From: a virus | Lineage: Duplodnaviria; Heunggongvirae; Uroviricota; Caudoviricetes | Length of the DNA: 64,000 bases | Direction: 5' to 3' (one strand) | Virus record (IMG/VR): IMGVR_UViG_2563366840_000011 | Location: 1-64,000 of that record | Part shown: one piece after another, positions 3,884 through 35,005 of the stretch | Numbering within the stretch: the first letter of the stretch is position 1 | Layout: each line of letters starts with the position of its first letter | Translations under genes and position numbers: made by a program | Notes under the pieces: model-generated | The model's database searches: none | Seen by the model: the letters and a program-made list of their open reading frames with translations, nothing else | Told to the model about the DNA's origin: nothing

Positions 3884-6711
3884 TATGCAAGCCTCACAAT
3901 ATAGTTAAATGCGATGTTTTTGACGGTGTTTTCCGCGTTACCAGCAGCGTTAACGGTGATGGTGTGTCCATGTGAACCAATCGCAACGGAGTGCGTATGA
4001 GCACCAATACCGACAGTATGCGCGTGTGCACCTGCAGATGCTGCTGTGCCGGACAGTGAATGGCTATGATTACCATCTGTACTGGTATTCGCTAACCACC
4101 CCGTAGACATACCTACTGAGCCTTGTACACCCCAGGTATTTTGACCTGAGCTTGTATAACCATATTGATAAGTATCTTTAAAAACACTGGGGTTAAATCG
4201 ACGGCCATCTCTATGGCTGTGATTACCAGCTGCATTCGTGCTGCCACTTAAACTATGGGTATGCGCACCAGTGTTATTCGTGGATTTAGTGCCGTAATCA
4301 AACGACGATGTGGTTTTCGTCCCCAAATCCGTACTGGATGCGCTGGCGCTGTGGGTATGCGATTTAATGCCGTCCTGTTCCTGAGACAATACGGCCCGAC
4401 CACTGGCAGGTTTGCCCTTAATCGTCCAGCCACGCATATCAGGGATCACGCCTGACGGATAAGCGGCTGCAAGTTTCGGGTATGCAGATTTGTCAAAAGT
4501 CTGCCCCTGCATCAGGGCATAGCCAGACGGAACGGTATCTGATGGCCACGGGATTGGTGCGCCAGGCGGATAAAACTGCTCTGATGGCGTATAGAGTGAA
4601 TAAACTGTACCGTCCGTTAACCCTTCCGGCTTATTAGCAGAATATGCTGGTGACGTATGAATCGTCACGCTGGCATTACTGGTATAATCCCATTGAATAT
4701 TTACACCAGTCGCATAATTTCCGATTGCAACGTAAATATCGTAAGTATCACCAGATGTATTGACCCAGGCAAAATTTGTAAACCCTGTCGATGTGCGCTG
4801 CCATAAAGCACCAGTAATCCCCTTCGGATTACCATTACCTGCACGTAAAACAAGTTCAGATATACCTGCCTGTTGAGGTGACCCCACGTTAAATCCAGCG
4901 CCACCAATCAACGTAATTGAAACAACAGAACTCGCCTGTGGCATGGTTACCGTTGCTAATTTGAACCAACCAGCACCACCGCTGAATGACATTGTTGTTG
5001 AGTTAAGCGTACCAATATCTTTCGGCGTCAGTGTTATATCCGCTGAAAGCGCCTTACCATTCACCTTACGGGCAGAAGGTACCCGACCATTCGCATTGTC
5101 ATTAGCTGCTTTCACTGCTTTCGGTGTCGCAGCAAGCGTTTCAGATGTGCTGTTGGTTGCACTACTGAGCTGGACAATTCCTTTTTGTGCTGTCGTAGCG
5201 TCCTGTGCGGTGTATTTCCCGTTAGCCAGGTCATACGCGGCCTTAACGGCTTTTGGCGTTGCCGCCTGTGACTCGGAAGTGCTGTTGGTCGCACTGCTGA
5301 GCTGTACTATCCCCTTTTTCGTCGTGCTCGCATCCTCAAGCGCCACGGCGGATGCAATATCCTCTGCCCGTTTTGCTGCTGTCTCGGCGCGCGTTGCCGC
5401 GGATTCCGCCGTACTTTTGCTCTGTGCTGCCGCTGCCGCACTGCCAGCAGCCTCTGTCGCCTTCGTGGATGCCGTCGTGGCGCTGCCCCTCGCTGCTGAC
5501 GCCTGTCTGGTCGCCTCATCTTTTGAAGCAGACGCAGATGATGCCGATGACGCCGCCGAACTGGCGGACGATGCGGCAGCCGTTTTTGAGGATTCTGCGC
5601 TGGTTTCCGACGCTTTCGCGTTCGTTTCGGATGTCTTCGCTGCGGAAGCAGACCTCGCTGCTGCGCTGGCCTGTTCAGTGGCTTCGCCAGCCTTCGTTGT
5701 GGCTGTTGAAGCAGACGATGCGGCACTTTCTGCCGACTTTCCGGCAGCGGTGGCACTGGCTGAGGCCTGCCCGGCACTTGTTGACGCGGCGCTGGCAGAT
5801 GATGCAGCCGCTGTTTTTGAGCCTGCCGCAGCCGAGGCGCTCTGTCCCGCTGCCGTTTCAGAAGACCTGGCGTTCGTCTCGGACGTTTTTGCCGCCTTCG
5901 CGGAATTTCCTGCCGCCGTTGCCGAGGAAGCGGCACTACTGGCGCTTGATGATGCGTTCGTTTCTGATGATTTTGCCGCCTCTTTTGAAGCCGACGCATC
6001 CCGTGCTGAAGTGGCTGCTTCTGACGCTTTCGTAGTCGCGGTGGATGCAGAAGTGGCTGCTGATTGTTGTGACGCTGCCGCATTCGTTTCTGACGTTTTC
6101 GCCGCACCGGCACTGGTAGCCGCCGCGCTTTTTGAGGACTCTGCAGCGGCAGCACTTTTTAATGCTTCAGTGGCCTTTGTTGATGCCGTTCCTGCGCTGG
6201 AAGACGCTGACTGAGCCGACGAAGCAGCCTGTCCGGCTGACGTGCTGGCTGCGCGTGCTGAGCCTGCAGCATCAGTCGCATGGGTTGCCGCCTCACGGGC
6301 TGATGTGCTGGCATCGCTGGCTGACTTCTTCGCGGCTGCCGTGTTCTGTGCCACCGCGGACGCGTTACGCGCCACCTCTTCCACCATCAGTTCAAAACGG
6401 CGCAGTGCCTCAGGACGGGCATCATCCTCCGTCATGGCACCGAGAAAATCATTCAGCGTACCGGGTCGGGAATCTTCATACACGGTGATGGTCCCGGCAT
6501 GTGACGGCGGGAATCCTTCCACCAACAGAATAACGCTGTACTGACCGTACTCAACGTCCATGCTGTAACGCCCGGCTTCATCCGGATTTTCTGAGGCCAG
6601 CGTGTTCACCACCACCGTGGTACTGTTACGTTTTGCTTTCAGCTGGATTGTGCAGTTCTGTACCGGTTTTCCTGTGCCGTCTTTCAGTACACCTGAAATC
6701 TTTACTGCCAT
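3883..6711 (-). CDS. stf: Side tail fiber protein Stf (lambda Stf-like) with expanded Ala/Ser-rich fibrous repeats
   Basis: Near-identity to lambda Stf N- and C-termini ([12 protein letters not shown]... / ...[19 protein letters not shown]); ATG at 6711 preceded by GGGG SD; ORF track start at 6717 is an upstream GTG. Confidence 0.85.
4950..6250 (-). repeat. Low-complexity imperfect tandem repeats encoding the Ala/Ser/Thr-rich shaft of Stf (recurring KTSETNA / AASSASxASTSAGQ units)
   Basis: Visible recurring peptide units in the Stf translation; GC-rich repetitive DNA giving long spurious ORFs in other frames. Confidence 0.5.
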
Positions 6712-28069: not shown

Positions 28070-28340
28070 GATGTTACCGTAGTATGTGAGTATCCATCGA
28101 ATAGATACCAAGCAAAAAAGCTCCCGAAGGAGCCTTCATTTTCACTTTTTTAAATCCAACGACAGACGGCTGGCATTTAAGTATTGTGAAATATTATCAA
28201 ATGTAATCATCATTGATTTACAAAAGATACATTTTGCCCCGAAAGGATTCATGTCAGAAACATCAAAAGATGATGTTCTATACTGGGAACCATGACAACA
28301 CGGGCATCTAAAGTGAATATGGTTTGTAATATTGTCTACC

Positions 28341-28553
28341 TCAAAGCGCCACTACATGAACAGCGGCAGGACCTTTAGGTCCGTTCTCAATACCAAATTC
28401 AACTTCCTGATTCTCAGTTAATGTTTTGAAATCGTTGCTCTGAATTGCTGAGAAATGGACAAACACATCTTTGCTGCCATCTTTCGGCGTGATGAAACCA
28501 AAACCTTTTTCAGGGTTAAACCATTTCACTAAACCAGTCATTTTGTTAGACAT
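28341..28553 (-). CDS. cspI: Cold shock protein (CspA family)
   Basis: 70-aa ORF with RNP motifs KGFGFI and VFVHF; position as cspI in Qin. Confidence 0.85.
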
Positions 28554-28916
28554 AATTATTACCTTTTGAAGAAATTAGCCCTTGGGCAGAATGGTCCGAA
28601 AAAAAATATCAGAGAGAAAAACCAACAAGGAAATCTCAAGAGGTACAAATAATAAAATTATAACAATGACTGCTTCAGATAAATTTGTAACAAACCAGAA
28701 CACCATTAACGCATGATTAACCACCCATAGCAAGGATTACTTTTGTAAAGAAAAACACAGCAATGAAAGAATAGCTTTATTTATTAATAATAACGTGTCA
28801 TTCTGATTAAGACCTTTTATCTTACCCTTAAGATTTCAGGAATTTTGGCTCATGGAAGAGTCCTTTTTATTTAAATTTTACATTCCGCGATGTAAATGTT
28901 CCGATTTAATATTACC

Positions 28917-29944: not shown

Positions 29945-30252
29945 ATATATTTATGATGAGGACGCTCGTGCTTATTGGCAGGATTTTCAATCTTAAAGGA
30001 GTACTGATGCTGCAGATAAGACTCAACTTTTTCTGACAATTTTTCTGCTACTTCCAGGAAGACTTGCCGGACGCTCCTTCTGGCTGCTGCCTCATAAAAC
30101 TCCAGCGCAGCTCCTTCAACACGGTCCATGGCGACATCCAGGTCAAAAATTTCACCGTCAAAGCGTTCTTTGTCCTGTAAGGCTACAGTTACCGTAACTT
30201 TATTCTCAAAATTACGGACTCCTTTCACAACCAGTTCATAGTCTTGAGTCAT
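29941..30252 (-). CDS. ydfR: YdfR-like protein (DUF1327)
   Basis: 103-aa ORF between holin and endolysin as in Qin. Confidence 0.65.
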
Positions 30253-30256
30253 TGGA

Positions 30257-30472
30257 TTACTCTCCTCTCGCAGCCTTACGCCTGTCTTCTTTAATCTTGA
30301 AATAAAGATTTGTCAGATACGTCAGCAGGCCAAAAACCAGGCTACCCAGCACACCGATTGCAGCCCACTGTGACGGAGTTACTTTATCGAGTAACTGCAA
30401 TGCCCAGAAACCAGCATTACCCGCCGATGTGCCATAGGCAACACCTGTTGTTAACTTATCCATTGATTTCAT
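30257..30472 (-). CDS. essQ: Holin, S21-type pinholin (dual-start motif MKSMDK)
   Basis: Matches remembered P21 S sequence (…[11 protein letters not shown]…[20 protein letters not shown]); two TM segments. Confidence 0.8.
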
Positions 30473-30691
30473 ATCCTCACCCCGATGTACACGGATGGTG
30501 CAATATGTTTGAAAAGATCGGAGTCTACGGGGTAGTTTTGACAGCACACGTTGTTCTCAACGGCGCTAAAAAAACATACACATTAAAAATGTGGGTAATT
30601 ATTTTGAAAGAAAGTCATATATAAAATAATAATACGAGAAATGTTTTCATATTTAGTGTACTGTATACGGCCATTTATACAGGAAAAGCCT

Positions 30692-30862
30692 ATGTCAGAA
30701 CGTAAAAACTCAAAATCACGCCGTAATTATCTCGTTAAATGTTCCTGCCCAAACTGCACCCAAGAGTCAGAACACAGTTTTTCAAGAGTACAAAAAGGTG
30801 CCCTTTTGATCTGCCCTCATTGCAACAAAGTATTCCAGACAAATCTTAAAGCTGTAGCCTGA
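30692..30862 (+). CDS. Small zinc-ribbon protein (two CxxC pairs), hypothetical
   Basis: 56-aa ORF from ATG with AGGAAAAG SD; CPNC...CPHC motif; opposite strand to the lysis genes. Confidence 0.4.
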   Translation: MSERKNSKSRRNYLVKCSCPNCTQESEHSFSRVQKGALLICPHCNKVFQTNLKAVA

Positions 30863-30916
30863 TTGATTTTATTAGTAACAAGTATTTTTTATATTTTAAT
30901 AATATATTTAAAGCAG

Positions 30917-30943
30917 ATAATAAAAAACCCGCCTGAGCGGGTT
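30917..30943 (-). terminator. Rho-independent terminator downstream of cspB
   Basis: aacccgc-ctga-gcgggtt hairpin with T-rich tract on the minus strand. Confidence 0.5.
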
Positions 30944-31225
30944 TGAGATTGTGGTGCTTTTTGTGGGAGTCATCCACTTACGCACTTTGTTTTGCCATGC
31001 CAGCAGTTAGCTTCTGCTGTAAAACTATTCATGCAGCAAACCTGCACTTCACCACAATGGTTAGCATACTTTTCCTGATTAAGATTTTGCCAAATATGCT
31101 AGCCATTGTTTCATGTATTGGACCTCCTTACTTTTTATTAAAGAGATCCAATATTCACTACTCTGTCCGTATCTCTACTCAGGCATCAGCCTTCTTCGTT
31201 ATCGTATACAGACGAGCGATGAATT

Positions 31226-31441
31226 TTAATCAGTAATGATGACATTTGCTGCTGCAGGACCTTTAGCACCACTCTCTATAGAGAAGGTAACCTTTTGACC
31301 TTCAAATAAGGTTCGATAATTATCATTCTGAATCGCAGAAAAATGCACAAACACATCTTTACTACCATCAACAGGAGAAATAAAGCCGAAACCTTTATCA
31401 GCGTTAAACCATTTTACTAAACCAGTCATTTTATTTGACAT
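31226..31441 (-). CDS. cspB: Cold shock protein CspB
   Basis: 71-aa CspA-family ORF; position and sequence as Qin cspB. Confidence 0.85.
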
Positions 31442-31741
31442 TCTACATTCCTTAACTTGAGCCTTTCGGCATAAATGGTTTGCATAACAGAAACGACTTC
31501 GTACTTAATTGGAGAGACTCAAAGAAGGAATAAGTGAATAACACCTGAAATGAGAACTGCTTTAGTAAACTACTTCGTATATCGTCTGTTCTTCAAACCG
31601 ACGCAATCATTAACGCATAGTTGAACATATGAAGCAATGTTTATTTTAGACATCCAGCCATCTTCAACCCCATCAAAAAACTATAGCTTTCTTCAGGAAC
31701 GTGTGTATAGTGCGCCAAGTTATCAGTATTAAGGAATTTTT

Positions 31742-31954
31742 TTGTCCCGTAAAATGACAGGAATTGTCAAAACCTTTGACGGCAAAAGCGGCAAGGGTCT
31801 TATCACCCCATCCGATGGTCGTATCGATGTCCAGCTTCATGTTTCAGCGCTCAATCTCCGCGATGCAGAAGAAATTACCACCGGATTACGCGTGGAATTT
31901 TGCCGGATAAATGGTCTGCGTGGCCCTTCAGCTGCCAATGTTTACCTTTCATGA
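31742..31954 (+). CDS. cspF: Cold shock protein-like CspF
   Basis: 70-aa divergent CspA-family ORF, divergently oriented to cspB. Confidence 0.8.
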
Positions 31955-32246
31955 GCTATATTAAAGCTTTAATTTCAGGCCCCATCGGATCACACATGGA
32001 GAGTTTTTATGAATAACCCCGTCTGTCTTGATGACTGGTTGATTGGCTTTAAAAGCTTATGCTGTACTTTGGCCGTAATAGCTCTGCTAATAATATAATA
32101 AGCAGACTCATTGTGTTTAGGGACATTGTACTGGAAGAAAACATTTTAAACATCAGGCAAATAACCAAGTCACCAGCTAAATAATAAGTTAACAGACATG
32201 AGTCCCGGGATGAGATTCAACATTACCATTGCCCCATTTAAAGCAC

Positions 32247-32270
32247 AAAACCCGCTCATCAGCGGGTTTT
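32247..32270 (-). terminator. tR'-like terminator downstream of the late promoter
   Basis: aaaacccgc-tcatc-agcgggtttt hairpin about 45-70 nt downstream of the predicted -10. Confidence 0.5.
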
Positions 32271-32315
32271 CTACTTTTTCTTAACGTCGGGTATACAAAG
32301 CCCATCGTTGAAAAA

Positions 32316-32344
32316 ATTTTATCCATATTTTTTGAAAAATGCAA
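32316..32344 (-). promoter_or_regulatory. pR'-like late promoter (-35 TTGCAT, 17-bp spacer, -10 TAAAAT), presumed Q utilization region
   Basis: Near-consensus sigma70 hexamers on the minus strand immediately downstream of Q. Confidence 0.45.
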
Positions 32345-32375
32345 ACATCATGTCGCCATCTTCAGCAAAAATCAT

Positions 32376-33128
32376 TTATCTCGTCACCTTCCTCAATTGC
32401 GCTTCCGCGTATGCTTCTTCCTGCCAGCACTTTGTTACCAGTTTACCAATGACGTCCGCATACCCCTTATACCACTGATAATCGGTCAGGTCTGGTACCA
32501 GCTTCTGGACATGACGTCGTGCCAGCGTGGTCGGTAAACGACTAAACCGGTTTCCATTACAACGCCCACAAATCTTATATACCGGTACGCCATGAAACCG
32601 GGTTCTTTTTTCATCCAGAACAATCCCTTTACCCTTACACCCTCTGCACGCTGTGCTGGCTTCGCCCTTACCATGGCAATGCTGACATAGTTCCTTCACC
32701 CATTCTTCCTTGATTACAGATTCCCCGCGTCTGTAGTGTTTCACCACTTCGCGCAATACATTATAAAATCCCGTACCTGAACAATGCTCACAGCGAGCCT
32801 TACTTGCCGCAGACCTGGAGTAATCAGCAAAGGCAAAACTCACGAGGTAAGGAATAATCTGTAACCGGATTTCTTCACTCAATTTGTTCAATGTCGGGTT
32901 ATCCAGTGCCATCGCGTAATTTAGCAGGCCTTCAATCGCAAACTGAGGGTCCTGAACACCAACTTTTGCCAGAAATAAGGCCAACCCAAGTGGTGCTTTC
33001 GACTGCACCATCCCCTGCGCTGCCATTACATCCGTAATTGTTAAACAACCGGTGCCTGTCGCTGGAGCGTCATCGCTCAATTTTGGAGATTTTGGGGAGT
33101 AATATTTTGGTAAGGCTTCAAGGTTCAT
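32376..33128 (-). CDS. quuQ: Late gene antiterminator Q
   Basis: 250 aa from MNLEALPKYY; Cys-rich zinc-binding motifs; directly upstream of a pR'-like promoter. Confidence 0.8.
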   Translation of the reverse strand: MNLEALPKYYSPKSPKLSDDAPATGTGCLTITDVMAAQGMVQSKAPLGLALFLAKVGVQDPQFAIEGLLNYAMALDNPTLNKLSEEIRLQIIPYLVSFAFADYSRSAASKARCEHCSGTGFYNVLREVVKHYRRGESVIKEEWVKELCQHCHGKGEASTACRGCKGKGIVLDEKRTRFHGVPVYKICGRCNGNRFSRLPTTLARRHVQKLVPDLTDYQWYKGYADVIGKLVTKCWQEEAYAEAQLRKVTR

Positions 33129-33141
33129 GCTCGTTCTCCAC

Positions 33142-34191
33142 TTACGCCAGTACGCCAATTGCCAGCGCGCGATCGATAAAACGAAATATCAGCTCCAGTT
33201 GGGAGCCATACTTATCTTCAAATGCCACTGTATCCGTATGCAGCTCGTTGTGATGCTTTCTGCACAAAGGCAACACAAAGAGATCATGTGCTTTTGTTCC
33301 CATTCCGCCCTGCCCGTGACCAATCAGATGATGCGGATCGTCGGCTGGCATACCGCAGCAAGCACACGGCTGTGTCTTAACCCAACGTGTGTATTTCTCC
33401 TTAACCCAGCGGCGACGTTTAGGCAGCTTCATGAAAGATTCCGGAGACTCTGGATCAACGGTGATGCTTACCACCGTCTTTTCCTGTGGTGATTTTTGTT
33501 GCTGGTGGGCGTAAGGCAACGGTGCAAGATTTTTTGTGCGTTGTTTCAATATGCTGGTGGCGGTCTGCTCTCCCGGTACGATGTCGCTTTCGCGGTACAC
33601 CGAGCAGATTTTTTCCGCTGGTAATCCCAGCGAACGACGCGATACAGCCTCAGGTAGTGCATCCACCACCTGATTGCAGACCGCCCACCAGGATAATTCA
33701 GCCAAAGATAATTCCCGCTCCTGCGTACCGCTTATTGCGTGACGGATGACGTCAATCACCCATGCTGTCAGATTTTGTTGAGCAAGCAGCTCCAGTGATT
33801 CCGATGTCTGGTCACGCAGTTGGTTGTCGCAGTGCCAGCACAACACCATTGCGCCGGTACCATAACGGTGAATGACTGTTTCAGTGTGATGGTAATCGCC
33901 ATTAGGCCACTGGCAGGATGTAACATGACGTAATAGCCAGTCGGACAATGCGCCAACGCCGCCAGCAGCACGAATCACCCGTTCGTTACTAAAAAACGGC
34001 AGCAATGTTTTGTCTTCCGCCAGCGGCTGGCGAACGGCAGGAACGACTCCGGATGGCAGATTACGCATGCTTTTTGGTTCCGGTTCCACCAGCACTCGAG
34101 GATTATGAAATATCTGTATGGATTCACGGCCCGGCTTAAGGACCACCAGCCCAAGCTCAGGCACCAGAACAGGTCTAAGTAATACCCGCAC
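33142..34191 (-). CDS. ydfU: YdfU-like DUF968 protein with C-terminal HNH-like motif
   Basis: 349 aa from GTG at 34191 with GGAGG SD 5 nt upstream; C-terminal CxxC...HH...H HNH-like signature. Confidence 0.7.
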   Translation of the reverse strand: MRVLLRPVLVPELGLVVLKPGRESIQIFHNPRVLVEPEPKSMRNLPSGVVPAVRQPLAEDKTLLPFFSNERVIRAAGGVGALSDWLLRHVTSCQWPNGDYHHTETVIHRYGTGAMVLCWHCDNQLRDQTSESLELLAQQNLTAWVIDVIRHAISGTQERELSLAELSWWAVCNQVVDALPEAVSRRSLGLPAEKICSVYRESDIVPGEQTATSILKQRTKNLAPLPYAHQQQKSPQEKTVVSITVDPESPESFMKLPKRRRWVKEKYTRWVKTQPCACCGMPADDPHHLIGHGQGGMGTKAHDLFVLPLCRKHHNELHTDTVAFEDKYGSQLELIFRFIDRALAIGVLA

Positions 34192-34789: not shown

Positions 34790-35005
34790 CAGAATCCTTC
34801 CGGATAATTAGCTCTCCCCTTTAAGGGACCATCCCTCTTATCCCTGCGCGCTACTTAAGTATTTTTGATTCTATTCCGGCACCGTCCAGAACTTCAAACG
34901 CGTTGAAAATAAAAACAAAAACCCGCCGAAGCGGGTTAAGTGCGGGTGCGTTGAGGATGCCTGCCACATCAGAGGTGGCGAGGGATTTCTCCCCCGCCGG
35001 GTCTC

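Follow-up and report, generated by a model that had tools for sequence, protein, structure and literature searches.

Introduction

Divergent pairs formed by a cold-inducible csp gene and a gene of the cspF/cspH type are known in E. coli, cspG/cspH being one such pair. Equally familiar is the placing of cargo between the late promoter and the lysis genes, a known principle of lambdoid phages. In Shiga toxin (Stx) phages the cargo is read by RNA polymerase modified by the late antiterminator Q, and the same source gives a definition of morons (PMC8065619). At lambda pR′, the sequence AACGAT occupies positions +1 to +6 and is followed by GGG, and the polymerase pauses at +16 (PMC4005639). The families of Q proteins, with their accessions, have been defined (PMC9388147), among them the Q21 family (PF06530) and the Q82 family (PF06323).

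Here we describe a locus in which these elements come together. The window, that is the whole 64,000-nucleotide stretch of viral DNA that was analysed and to which all coordinates refer, shows 100% identity between positions 30200 and 33200 with the Qin prophage of E. coli K-12 MG1655. The region is the well-known late-gene control region of Qin, its layout is ordinary, and the arrangement is already known from the annotation of K-12.

Results

On the minus strand, quuQ is followed by a late promoter with a pause element and a terminator, then by about 1.75 kb of cargo and finally by the holin gene essQ. The distance from the Q stop codon to the holin ATG is 1903 bp, and that from the terminator foot to the same ATG is 1775 bp, which bears out the figure of about 1.8 kb between terminator and holin gene given in a first-pass annotation of this DNA. 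That annotation had also correctly placed a late promoter and a terminator directly 3′ of the Q gene, and the divergent genes cspB and cspF between these signals and the lysis cassette. The elements of the late switch and its target are as follows.

32376–33128, minus strand: quuQ (ydfT in the K-12 annotation), late antiterminator of the lambda Q family (Pfam PF03589, E 3.6e-54)
32316–32345, minus strand: putative late promoter pR′ of Qin, TTTGCA-18-TAAAAT (alternatively a −35 of TTGCAT with a 17-bp spacer), from a 9/12 scan match and alignment to lambda pR′
32301–32309, minus strand: putative sigma-dependent pause element, AACGAT plus a discriminator-like GGG triplet, by homology to lambda pR′
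32247–32270, both strands: tR′, bidirectional intrinsic terminator hairpin with which the conserved Q module ends (terminator scan and fold)
32243–32309, minus strand: short constitutive pR′-tR′ transcript, predicted at ~67 nt, counterpart of the lambda 6S RNA (3′ end from Term-seq, 5′ end predicted)
30257–30472, minus strand: essQ, phage-21-type holin and first gene of the lysis cassette (Pfam PF04971, E 4e-34; K-12 annotation)

The lysis cassette continues after essQ with ydfR, rrrQ and rzpQ, the next genes matching DUF1327 and Phage_lysozyme in Pfam. The Q protein had been taken to be of the 82/21 type, an assignment that both profile and structure searches rule out. The profile search with QuuQ gave only PF03589 and a DnaJ zinc-finger match, with no hit to PF06530 or PF06323. 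A search of the PDB matched the solved lambda Q structures 7UBM (E 4.6e-36) and 4MO1, and none of the six matches returned (E up to 1) was a Q21 or Q82 chain. QuuQ is 33% identical to lambda Q from end to end (BLASTP E 2e-40) with a gap of 48 amino acids; the zinc-ribbon arm of QuuQ contains a 48-residue insertion with two extra CxxC pairs, matching DnaJ_CXXCXGXG in Pfam. Q thus belongs to the lambda family, and the 21-like part of the region is the lysis cassette only. The quuQ open reading frame is intact; our search of the literature on the function of quuQ, ydfT or essQ found nothing useful.

The late promoter lies 31 nt after the Q stop codon and was identified because it is homologous to lambda pR′, with AACGATGGG at the same spacing: both the sequence of the pause element and its 6-nt distance from the −10 hexamer are the same as in lambda. 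In the 64-kb window the composite TAAAWT-N6-AACGATGGG is found a single time, against an expectation of 0.02. All eight relatives compared that have this Q module keep the promoter, with TAAGAT as the −10 hexamer in most, and seven of the eight keep the pause element. Transcription is predicted to start at 32309 and to pause at about 32294. Set against the Q-binding-element region of lambda, the spacer of pR′ agrees at 16 of 24 positions by our own count, and the DNA-binding arm of QuuQ carries the insertion described above. The searched text of the Cappable-seq supplement has no entry at the pR′ coordinates. On the strength of its homology to lambda pR′, we regard late-promoter function of this site in Qin as putative.

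The promoter hexamers are a different matter. The first-pass annotation had called the promoter near-consensus, which is too strong for a 9/12 match, and had proposed that the assignment should fall if the hexamers did not score above background or if a stronger promoter lay immediately upstream of the holin. In a scan of 3.4 kb we found 10 promoter-like sites compared with 7.2 ± 2.4 in shuffled sequence, which is no more than chance would give for hexamers taken by themselves, and the minus strand has another site that scores equally (TTTATA-16-AATAAT, 9/12) at 30625–30598, 126 nt upstream of the holin ATG. Taken literally, the proposed test would thus reject the assignment. This outcome says little about the late promoter, since the test is uninformative here. 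The scan gives pR′ and the holin-upstream site the same score and misses the cspB promoter, which is of a type (−10 GTTAAT) invisible to a consensus search; as a test for the late promoter it was dropped.

For the terminator there are published RNA 3′-end data. In uninduced K-12, Term-seq (Adams et al., 2021) detected a strong minus-strand 3′ end at window position 32243 (U00096.3 position 1642356), with scores of 103591, 55368 and 123305 in three growth conditions, which indicates that the promoter-terminator unit is active in the uninduced strain. The transcript folds into two hairpins (z = −6.0). On the late strand the T tract of tR′ reads TTTTGTGCTTT in Qin, shorter than the 7 T of most relatives, and a further minus-strand 3′ end was called at window position 32075 in one of the conditions; together these suggest that some read-through may occur without Q.

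Downstream of tR′ lies the cargo, whose features are listed here from the terminator towards the holin gene.

30499–32246, no strand: variable cargo slot, filled here by the csp cassette (blastn breakpoints, low G+C)
32009–32098, plus strand: ynfS, small membrane protein gene downstream of cspF (Pfam YnfS PF23697, E 5e-23; hypothetical protein in K-12)
31742–31954, plus strand: cspF, cold-shock-domain protein gene, antisense to the late transcript (Pfam CSD, E 5.6e-22; K-12 annotation)
31609–31637, minus strand: cspB promoter, −35 TTGCTT (31637–31632), 17-bp spacer with TGc, −10 GTTAAT (31614–31609), by reading of the sequence
31210–31602, minus strand: cspB mRNA, its leader a 161-nt thermosensor of the cspA type (full-length match to Rfam RF01766 at 158.8 bits, gathering score 78)
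31226–31441, minus strand: cspB coding sequence (Pfam CSD, E 1e-31)
31111–31225, minus strand: proximal 3′ UTR of cspB with two strong stem-loops (fold z = −7.8; second hairpin 14 bp)
30948–31066, minus strand: R1, candidate conserved structured RNA with four helices (comparative folding, covariance model)
30925–30944, both strands: bidirectional terminator between the convergent cspB and ynfU (strong 8-bp stem and T tract on the minus strand; Term-seq on the plus strand)
30692–30862, plus strand: ynfU, gene for a small protein with a zinc knuckle, also antisense to late transcription (Pfam YnfU PF23499, E 3.5e-31)

The limits of the slot were obtained by blastn against five phage loci that share the Q module, those of SfV, mEp460, Ayreon, PhiR47_1 and an Stx2k phage. 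All five keep Q-module identity through the promoter and the terminator, and in all five homology stops exactly at the terminator foot, 32247; Stx2c phages also match Q through this position. In PhiR47_1, mEp460 and Ayreon homology resumes 12–26 nt before the holin ATG, at 30498 or 30484, so that only the holin ribosome-binding region is shared upstream of the holin. In the Stx2k phage a weaker second match (72%) begins inside the holin gene at 30463, and the SfV locus gave no second blastn match on the holin side. Other phages have tRNAs, stx2AB with tRNAs and iraM, or a DNA methylase in the slot, which is a cargo hot spot. Most of 30500–32250 has a G+C content of 35–41%, compared with 45–55% in the flanks.

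The same csp cargo is found in the deposited complete phage genomes PhiR42_1 (100%), 2H10, HannyBb and PhiR63_1, in Tritos with a 258-bp deletion that clips cspF, and in 1608 of the 5426 complete E. coli genomes. The same cassette sits between Q and holin in a Superficieibacter prophage whose Q is of the Q21 family. The cassette also occurs outside late regions, beside the integrase in phage PHB10 and in phage Cyrano (108 kb), and the Enterobacter locus that was examined has it beside non-phage genes. These comparisons support the view that the csp region behaves as inserted cargo, or a ‘moron’, between late switch and lysis genes: a variable occupant lies between conserved modules, its base composition deviates from theirs, and it has its own promoter and terminator and prophage expression. 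The existence of relatives without the csp cargo suggests that it may be dispensable for phage growth. The earlier description of the csp genes as an insert between the Q module and the lysis cassette is therefore upheld by the breakpoints and the low G+C, whilst ‘cold-shock gene pair’ is correct as far as cspB and cspF go and leaves out ynfS, ynfU and the conserved structured RNA.

Three of the four cargo genes, cspF, ynfS and ynfU, face the late promoter. The best promoter-like site of the region (10/12) lies at 30604–30633 and could serve ynfU. Both small proteins have been detected, YnfS by tagging and YnfU at a relatively high level (bioRxiv 10.1101/511675). Transcription of cspB starts at 31602, where the match to the Rfam cspA model begins; the forward primer used by Adams et al. 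to clone cspB starts GTCGGTTTGAAG and hence at the same nucleotide. With the same model (RF01766, cspA thermoregulator) cspI scored 112.8 bits and cspF gave no match. A Rho-dependent 3′ end has been described within the cspB leader at window position 31521 (Adams et al.). The dominant 3′ end of cspB lies at 31111–31113, behind the 14-bp hairpin (Term-seq scores 604404, 1233565 and 2464295). At this point there is a tiny open reading frame, MKQWLAYLAKS (31114–31079), behind an apparently perfect Shine-Dalgarno sequence, TAAGGAGGT; it is probably spurious, because TAAGGAGGT is the 3′ arm of the hairpin and the ATG coincides with the dominant cspB 3′ end. The csp genes had been credited with a terminator of their own. 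One is indeed present at 30925–30944, but Term-seq called no minus-strand 3′ end there, only a plus-strand end at 30947 that is the end of ynfU, and the dominant cspB end is the one at 31111–31113.

Between that dominant 3′ end and the distal terminator lies R1, a closing stem around three hairpins. In an alignment of 25 distinct sequences from several genera, 97.2% of the cells are paired and eight pairs have changed on both sides; none of 500 shuffles reached this pairing, and slid controls gave only 21–60%. RNAalifold recovers the same structure, and it is only on the cspB strand that G-U pairs are seen. All the sequences have an unchanged loop GAAGCUAAC and junction AAAGUGCGUAAG, but they were gathered by searches that demanded both motifs. 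From the genome scan we left out six chance matches outside Enterobacteriaceae. The covariance model finds one copy in the window (127 bits) and none after cspI; E. coli genomes that have R1 at all have it at a median of one place and a maximum of two. A relaxed-pattern scan of viral sequences for more diverse homologues returned only variants already known. R1 does not correspond to a known RNA family: searches of Rfam 15 gave no match in the window (E up to 1) except Trp_leader at E 0.96, which spans 30919–31003 and thus the neighbouring terminator together with the 3′ portion of R1, and no match at eight other loci (E up to 0.1). We found no published description of R1, and its two invariant motifs are in none of the relevant papers searched. 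Nor does R1 appear to be a homologue of YnfQ or YnfR, the small proteins encoded after cspI, since inspection of the translations revealed no similarity and the window has no second copy.

Discussion

The data fit best with the late-gene switch of a Qin-type lambdoid prophage in which a cargo cassette separates the switch from the lysis genes, and we consider this very probable. By analogy with lambda, RNA polymerase would start at about 32309 and pause at about +16 as sigma binds AACGAT. Without Q it would terminate at 32243 and release the ~67-nt RNA, whereas Q would bind between the −35 and −10 hexamers, load onto the paused polymerase and confer resistance to terminators. Polymerase modified in this way would pass tR′ and run antisense through ynfS and cspF, then in the sense direction through the cspB leader, coding sequence, 3′ hairpins and R1, past the terminator at 30925–30944 and antisense through ynfU into essQ-ydfR-rrrQ-rzpQ and beyond. 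From the known behaviour of lambda, we infer that read-through of the cargo in Qin depends on Q. In the lysogen the cargo is expressed independently of Q, with cspB under a cold-shock promoter and thermosensor leader and with separate promoters for cspF-ynfS and for ynfU. This autonomy is argued for by the strong match to the cspA-type thermoregulator, the coincidence of primer and start site at 31602, the low G+C and the detection of YnfU and YnfS.

Such a switch would require the late polymerase to pass two transcription units head-on. A promoter belonging to the lysis cassette itself might instead lie in the AT-rich DNA between ynfU and essQ, so that the csp cassette separates the lysis genes functionally from pR′ and Q-dependent read-through is not needed for lysis. 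The site at 30625–30598, which equals pR′ in score, and the two intrinsic terminators and two opposing transcription units between pR′ and essQ speak for such a scheme; but sites of this kind occur at background frequency in this AT-rich DNA, and the three aligned phages that share the Q module and have a related holin regain homology so close to the holin ATG that no holin-proximal promoter is conserved. Furthermore, in Stx phages pR′ drives transcription of more than 4 kb of cargo in this slot (PMC8065619), and polymerase loaded with Q runs past terminators for thousands of base pairs (PMC9388147). A separate lysis promoter thus seems improbable to us. One could also suppose that the csp DNA inserted into a late operon that was already dead and that the pR′-like sequence is a functionless relic, given that Qin in K-12 is a defective prophage and that the T tract of tR′ is shorter than in relatives. 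Against decay of this sort, PhiR42_1 has an identical 3-kb segment and 2H10, HannyBb, PhiR63_1 and Tritos have close ones, all of them deposited as complete phages; the Q reading frame is uninterrupted, the strong 3′ end at tR′ means that transcription arrives from upstream, and the Superficieibacter prophage places the same cassette between a Q of another family and its holin. A relic is accordingly very hard to credit, and the cargo-bearing late switch remains our preferred reading of the region.

How R1 should be understood is a separate question. Tentatively, it may be a functional RNA, not described before, that accompanies the cspF|cspB|ynfU cassette among Enterobacteriaceae and the phages of these bacteria. 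From its position, a functional R1 would be made chiefly by polymerases that get beyond the point of termination or processing at 31111. Such passage might happen in the cold through antiterminators of the CspA family, or when Q drives late transcription. One possible role of R1 would then be that of a regulatory RNA; another would be that of an element for processing or stability, by which cold or lytic growth is coupled to the expression of downstream genes. The conserved block could also be a small protein gene or a site acting at the level of DNA. A 41-codon open reading frame is annotated over R1 in PHB10, and our reading of the alignment shows that in most copies a mini-ORF of 12–15 codons ending ..KC(R/G)xAA-stop overlaps helices 1 and 2. 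The PHB10 frame is, however, broken in the Qin and Enterobacter copies though their nucleotides are conserved, and by our own reading the differences between Qin and PHB10 show no concentration at third codon positions. The two-sided pair changes, the near-complete pairing relative to the slid controls and the restriction of G-U pairs to the cspB strand also point away from a coding or DNA-level role, which we regard as unlikely.

The assignment of Q to the lambda type is of consequence, since the Q module of Stx2c and Stx2k phages is ~90–91% identical to that of K-12. Qin of K-12 can therefore safely serve as a model of the stx2c and stx2k control elements, namely promoter, pause site and terminator. 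The cargo slot is now bounded to the base pair. Since its occupant here is a conserved multi-gene cassette with three of four genes facing the late promoter, the locus is a natural place to study how Q-modified polymerase transcribes genes head-on. R1, if functional, would be a new element in cold-shock gene regulation.

Compared with lambda, the late cassette of Qin has a Q protein in the same family (PF03589), a promoter directly after the Q gene, an identical AACGAT and GGG at the same distance from the −10 hexamer, and an intrinsic terminator that follows and gives a short constitutive RNA. It differs in the 48-residue insertion of QuuQ with its two extra CxxC pairs, in the length of the short RNA (~67 nt, against 194 nt for the lambda 6S RNA), in the bidirectional nature of the terminator, in the 1.75 kb of opposing and same-sense cargo before the holin, where lambda has ~680 bp without known cargo, and in a lysis cassette that is phage-21-like. 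With the Stx phages, nucleotide identity from quuQ through the terminator foot is ~91% for Stx2c and ~90% for Stx2k, and the logic is the same, stx occupying the same slot between tR′ and holin. Their cargo is co-oriented with the late transcript and largely pR′-dependent, however, whereas in Qin cspF, ynfS and ynfU face the late promoter and cspB is under its own cold-shock control. Like the lambda morons bor and lom, the cassette is an autonomous, prophage-expressed unit of lower G+C in the late region with its own promoter and terminator; unlike them it is composite, with three transcription units and a structured RNA, and is also found outside late regions. Finally, the cspB mRNA resembles those of the cspA family in fitting the thermoregulator model RF01766 over its full length, and it is set apart from the other csp genes of E. 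coli by R1 downstream, which has no counterpart elsewhere in E. coli genomes.

Gene layout and the family of Q

E. coli K-12 MG1655, like many other chromosomes of the species, matches positions 30200-33200 with 100% identity; of 5426 complete E. coli genomes, 1608 have 80% or more of this 3-kb arrangement. In the K-12 annotation the region is the Qin prophage, with the gene order ydfU, ydfT/quuQ, cspF (+), cspB (-), ynfU (+), essQ (essD in RefSeq), ydfR, rrrQ, rzpQ, cspI; nearly all phage genes lie on the minus strand of the window. This annotation, the ORF list and the Pfam scan agree on the csp and holin genes. The distances and layout described in the first-pass annotation, with a cspB/cspF pair ahead of the lysis genes, were correct: the Q stop codon lies 1903 bp, and the terminator foot 1775 bp, from the holin ATG. 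The features of the region are:

32376-33128, minus strand: quuQ, the Q antiterminator gene (Pfam PF03589)
32247-32270: tR' terminator hairpin, with a terminator score on the plus strand and UUUUGUGCUUU after it on the minus strand
32009-32098, plus strand: ynfS, after cspF (Pfam YnfS)
31742-31954, plus strand: cspF, cold-shock-domain protein (ORF list, Pfam)
31637-31609, minus strand: cspB promoter read from the sequence, cspA-like TTGCTT-17-GTTAAT with a TGn motif
31210-31602, minus strand: cspB mRNA, matching the full Rfam cspA thermoregulator model (158.8 bits, threshold 78)
31226-31441, minus strand: cspB, cold-shock-domain protein (ORF list, Pfam)
30948-31066, minus strand: R1, a candidate structured RNA of four helices, past the dominant cspB 3′ end and before the distal terminator
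30692-30862, plus strand: ynfU, convergent with cspB (Pfam YnfU)
30257-30472, minus strand: essQ, phage-21-type holin (PF04971), followed by DUF1327 and lysozyme genes
28314-28699 and 28074-28330, minus strand: cspI locus; cspI follows the lysis cassette and has a full cspA-type thermosensor leader (112.8 bits)

Beyond cspI lie ynfQ (ATT start), ynfR and ynfN, with no R1 element there. Gene coordinates are one base off relative to MG1655 record NZ_CP032667.1, which places a 1-bp indel in the rzpQ-cspI intergenic region (between 28554 and 28917). Upstream of the Q region, between hokD and rem, 34916-34997 (minus strand) weakly matches IsrK, a Salmonella prophage sRNA (25 bits, threshold 50, E 0.037).

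QuuQ matches PF03589 with an E-value of 3.6e-54 and aligns with lambda Q along its full length at 33% identity, a 48-residue insertion excepted. Its PDB matches are the lambda Q chains 7UBM, 4MO1 and 7UBJ, together with three weak, unrelated ones (E 0.1-0.4), and include no Q21 or Q82 chain. Since Q21 (PF06530), Q-lambda (PF03589) and Q82 (PF06323) are three unrelated families (Yin et al., 2022, PMC9388147), the earlier description of this Q as 82/21-type was wrong; the resemblance to phage 21 is confined to the lysis cassette. The insertion (residues ~121-168) carries two additional CxxC pairs, matching the DnaJ CXXCXGXG motif, and falls inside the zinc-ribbon arm, which in lambda Q touches the distal part of the Q-binding element (PMC9388147). 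The lambda Q arm also contacts sigma region 4. Stx2c and Stx2k phages share a QuuQ-type Q (~90-91% DNA identity).

Late promoter and terminator

A consensus scan of the minus strand after Q found TTTGCA-18-TAAAAT at 32345-32316, a 9/12 hexamer match for a promoter that had been called near-consensus, wrongly. Overall the scan returned 10 sites against a background of 7.2 ± 2.4, that is, not above background, and a site at 30625-30598, upstream of the holin, scored equally. Judged by the refuting condition that the first-pass annotation itself set, its claim would fall, but that condition is weak; the same scan is blind to the experimentally defined cspB promoter. Upstream of the holin, only the ribosome-binding region is conserved among the three aligned relatives with traceable upstream homology, which speaks against conservation of a promoter close to the holin.

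The decisive evidence for the late promoter is that the DNA after Q aligns with lambda pR': Qin has TAAAAT-tttttc-AACGATGGG and lambda TAAATT-tgactc-AACGATGGG. In lambda, AACGAT (+1 to +6) is a -10-like element that causes a sigma-dependent pause at +16, and the GGG that follows is discriminator-like (PMC4005639). The 64-kb window has a single copy of the composite -10/pause pattern (0.02 expected), and 7 of 8 relatives keep it. From this homology and conservation, transcription is predicted to start at 32309 and to pause near 32294; the Cappable-seq supplement lists no entry at the pR' coordinates, and the 5′ end of the RNA is a predicted one.

Phages HannyBb (2314-2463 and 3960-4100 of locus L005) and PhiR63_1 have the late-promoter region twice, in tandem. 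The copy behind their own Q is a divergent allele with AATGATGAG in place of AACGATGGG; ~1.55 kb further on, a Qin-type Q is represented by its final 58 nt, together with pR'/tR' of the Qin type and the csp cassette. Such an arrangement looks like the outcome of recombination inside the promoter region.

The terminator proposed downstream of this promoter is present. Term-seq (Adams et al., 2021, PMC7815308, supplementary file 1) gives a minus-strand 3′ end at U00096.3 1642356, in the context ...AAAACCCGCTGATGAGCGGGTTTTGTGC, under all three growth conditions (scores 103591, 55368 and 123305). With an offset of 1,610,113 between the window and U00096.3, taken from the cspB entry of Adams et al., which has a 3′ end 80 nt ahead of the ORF, this is position 32243, so that an RNA ending at tR' is made in uninduced K-12. 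Given the predicted start it would be ~67 nt long and, by this analysis, is the counterpart of lambda 6S RNA; the 77 nt from that start form two hairpins (z = -6.0). The T tract of the Qin tR' is shorter than those of its relatives. A further minus-strand 3′ end at 32075 (U00096.3 1642188; score 87904, one condition) lies 168 nt past tR', behind a CTGCT..AGCAG hairpin that is antisense to ynfS; this end suggests that some transcription leaks through tR' independently of Q.

The cargo and its RNA ends

The cargo exceeds the csp pair, including also ynfS and ynfU, whose products were both detected by tagging, YnfU at the highest level among the newly identified proteins (bioRxiv 10.1101/511675). 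The full-length Rfam match puts the cspB start at 31602, exactly the first base of the primer with which Adams et al. cloned cspB (PMC7815308), and a Rho-dependent 3′ end lies inside the leader at 31521 (PMC7815308). The claim that the csp genes have their own terminator was only partly right: the dominant cspB 3′ end, at 31111-31113 (Term-seq scores up to 2.46 million; PMC7815308), lies directly behind a 14-bp hairpin, and no minus-strand end was called by Term-seq at the 30925-30944 terminator, where ynfU ends on the plus strand (30947; PMC7815308). At 31079-31130 (minus strand), an apparently perfect Shine-Dalgarno TAAGGAGGT and an ATG suggest an 11-codon ORF that is probably spurious; the supposed signal is really the 3′ arm of the 14-bp hairpin.

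A candidate structured RNA

R1 was first seen on aligning the cspB unit with weak phage matches in Cyrano (108 kb) and PHB10, as a block ~160 nt past the cspB stop that is better conserved than the sequence adjoining the stop. Pattern scans, which required exact matches to both motifs reported as invariant, recovered R1 from 120 viral contigs and from 29 genome records of Escherichia, Shigella, Enterobacter, Kluyvera, Kosakonia, Phytobacter, Superficieibacter, Leclercia, Pseudescherichia, Atlantibacter and Raoultella; independent lineages are few (~six). Six further genome matches were dismissed as chance.

Covariation in the alignment of 25 distinct sequences supports a fold of R1 with a closing stem around three hairpins. 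Here 97.2% of cells are paired, against 21-60% with partners slid, and eight pairs changed on both sides, with the observed values reached by 0 of 500 shuffles; RNAalifold independently returned the same four helices. G-U pairs occur on the cspB strand only. Between lineages, nucleotide identity is 0.69-0.90 for R1, 0.68-0.82 for csp coding sequence and 0.50-0.68 for the flanks, R1 equalling or exceeding the coding region in all compared pairs but one. A covariance model finds a single copy in the window (127 bits). No Rfam family matched R1, either in the window or at eight further loci, and among the papers searched for the invariant motifs none was relevant. A mini-ORF overlaps helices 1 and 2, and R1 lies beyond the main 3′ end of cspB in K-12 at 37 °C. 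We consider R1 a credible candidate for a structured RNA.

Nearly all loci with enough flank show one constant order: cspF-like (-), cspB-like (+), then R1 110-160 nt past the stop, often with a convergent ynfU-like gene (-). A Superficieibacter prophage has the whole cassette flanked by a Q of the Q21 family (PF06530/DUF1133) on one side and a 21-type holin on the other; in PHB10 it adjoins the integrase, and in the examined Enterobacter locus, set among non-phage genes, a ynfN-like gene comes after R1. Matches to the STnc100 sRNA family lie downstream of R1 in two other loci (L139, 2941-3070, plus strand, ~400 nt away; L134, 2482-2683, minus strand, ~1.2 kb), the match of the Superficieibacter prophage being placed between the holin and ynfU; the Qin window has none.

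A variable slot within the late operon

Many phages match Q up to 32247 and no further, among them SfV, mEp460, Ayreon, Stx2c phages, an Stx2k phage and Salmonella phage 118970_sal3. By pairwise blastn, ~90% homology stops at 32247, the distal hairpin foot, in PhiR47_1, SfV, mEp460, Ayreon and the Stx2k phage. It restarts at 30498 (PhiR47_1) or 30484 (mEp460, Ayreon), 12-26 nt ahead of the holin ATG; the Stx2k phage has a weaker match (72%) from 30463, within the holin gene, and SfV no second blastn match past 32247. Other phages hold here four tRNAs; an unknown ORF with a 350-aa protein; a DNA methylase; or three tRNAs, stx2AB and iraM. These breakpoints and differing occupants mark 30499-32246, by sequence comparison, as a variable cargo slot, and with a G+C content of 35-41% over most of its length, against 45-55% in the flanks, they bear out the view of the csp region as an insert between late promoter and lysis cassette.

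The csp cargo is very unlikely to be a decay product of a dead prophage: the segment is identical in Escherichia phage PhiR42_1 and 94-98% identical in 2H10, HannyBb, PhiR63_1 and Tritos. In Tritos a 258-bp stretch between tR' and cspF (relative to window 31945-32202) is deleted, and with it ynfS and the final cspF codons; the Tritos record annotates cspB alone.

Lambda-type late control is the best-supported reading for Qin, of which the parts list, the homology and the RNA 3′ ends are shown. Initiation at pR' would be constitutive, followed by a sigma-mediated pause and by termination at tR' when Q is absent; with Q, the polymerase would pass the terminators, the pausing, Q loading and read-through being steps that we infer. 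Q-bearing polymerase ignores terminators for kilobases (PMC9388147). Here it would cross tR' and 300 nt antisense to ynfS and cspF, then the divergent csp promoters and the whole cspB unit in sense, and then a second terminator and ynfU in antisense before reaching essQ.

In conclusion, the observation is real and its reading essentially textbook and largely right, for an arrangement that was already known; only R1 and the head-on geometry of the cargo might repay experiments. In Shiga-toxin phages, the same slot is occupied by stx (PMC8065619).
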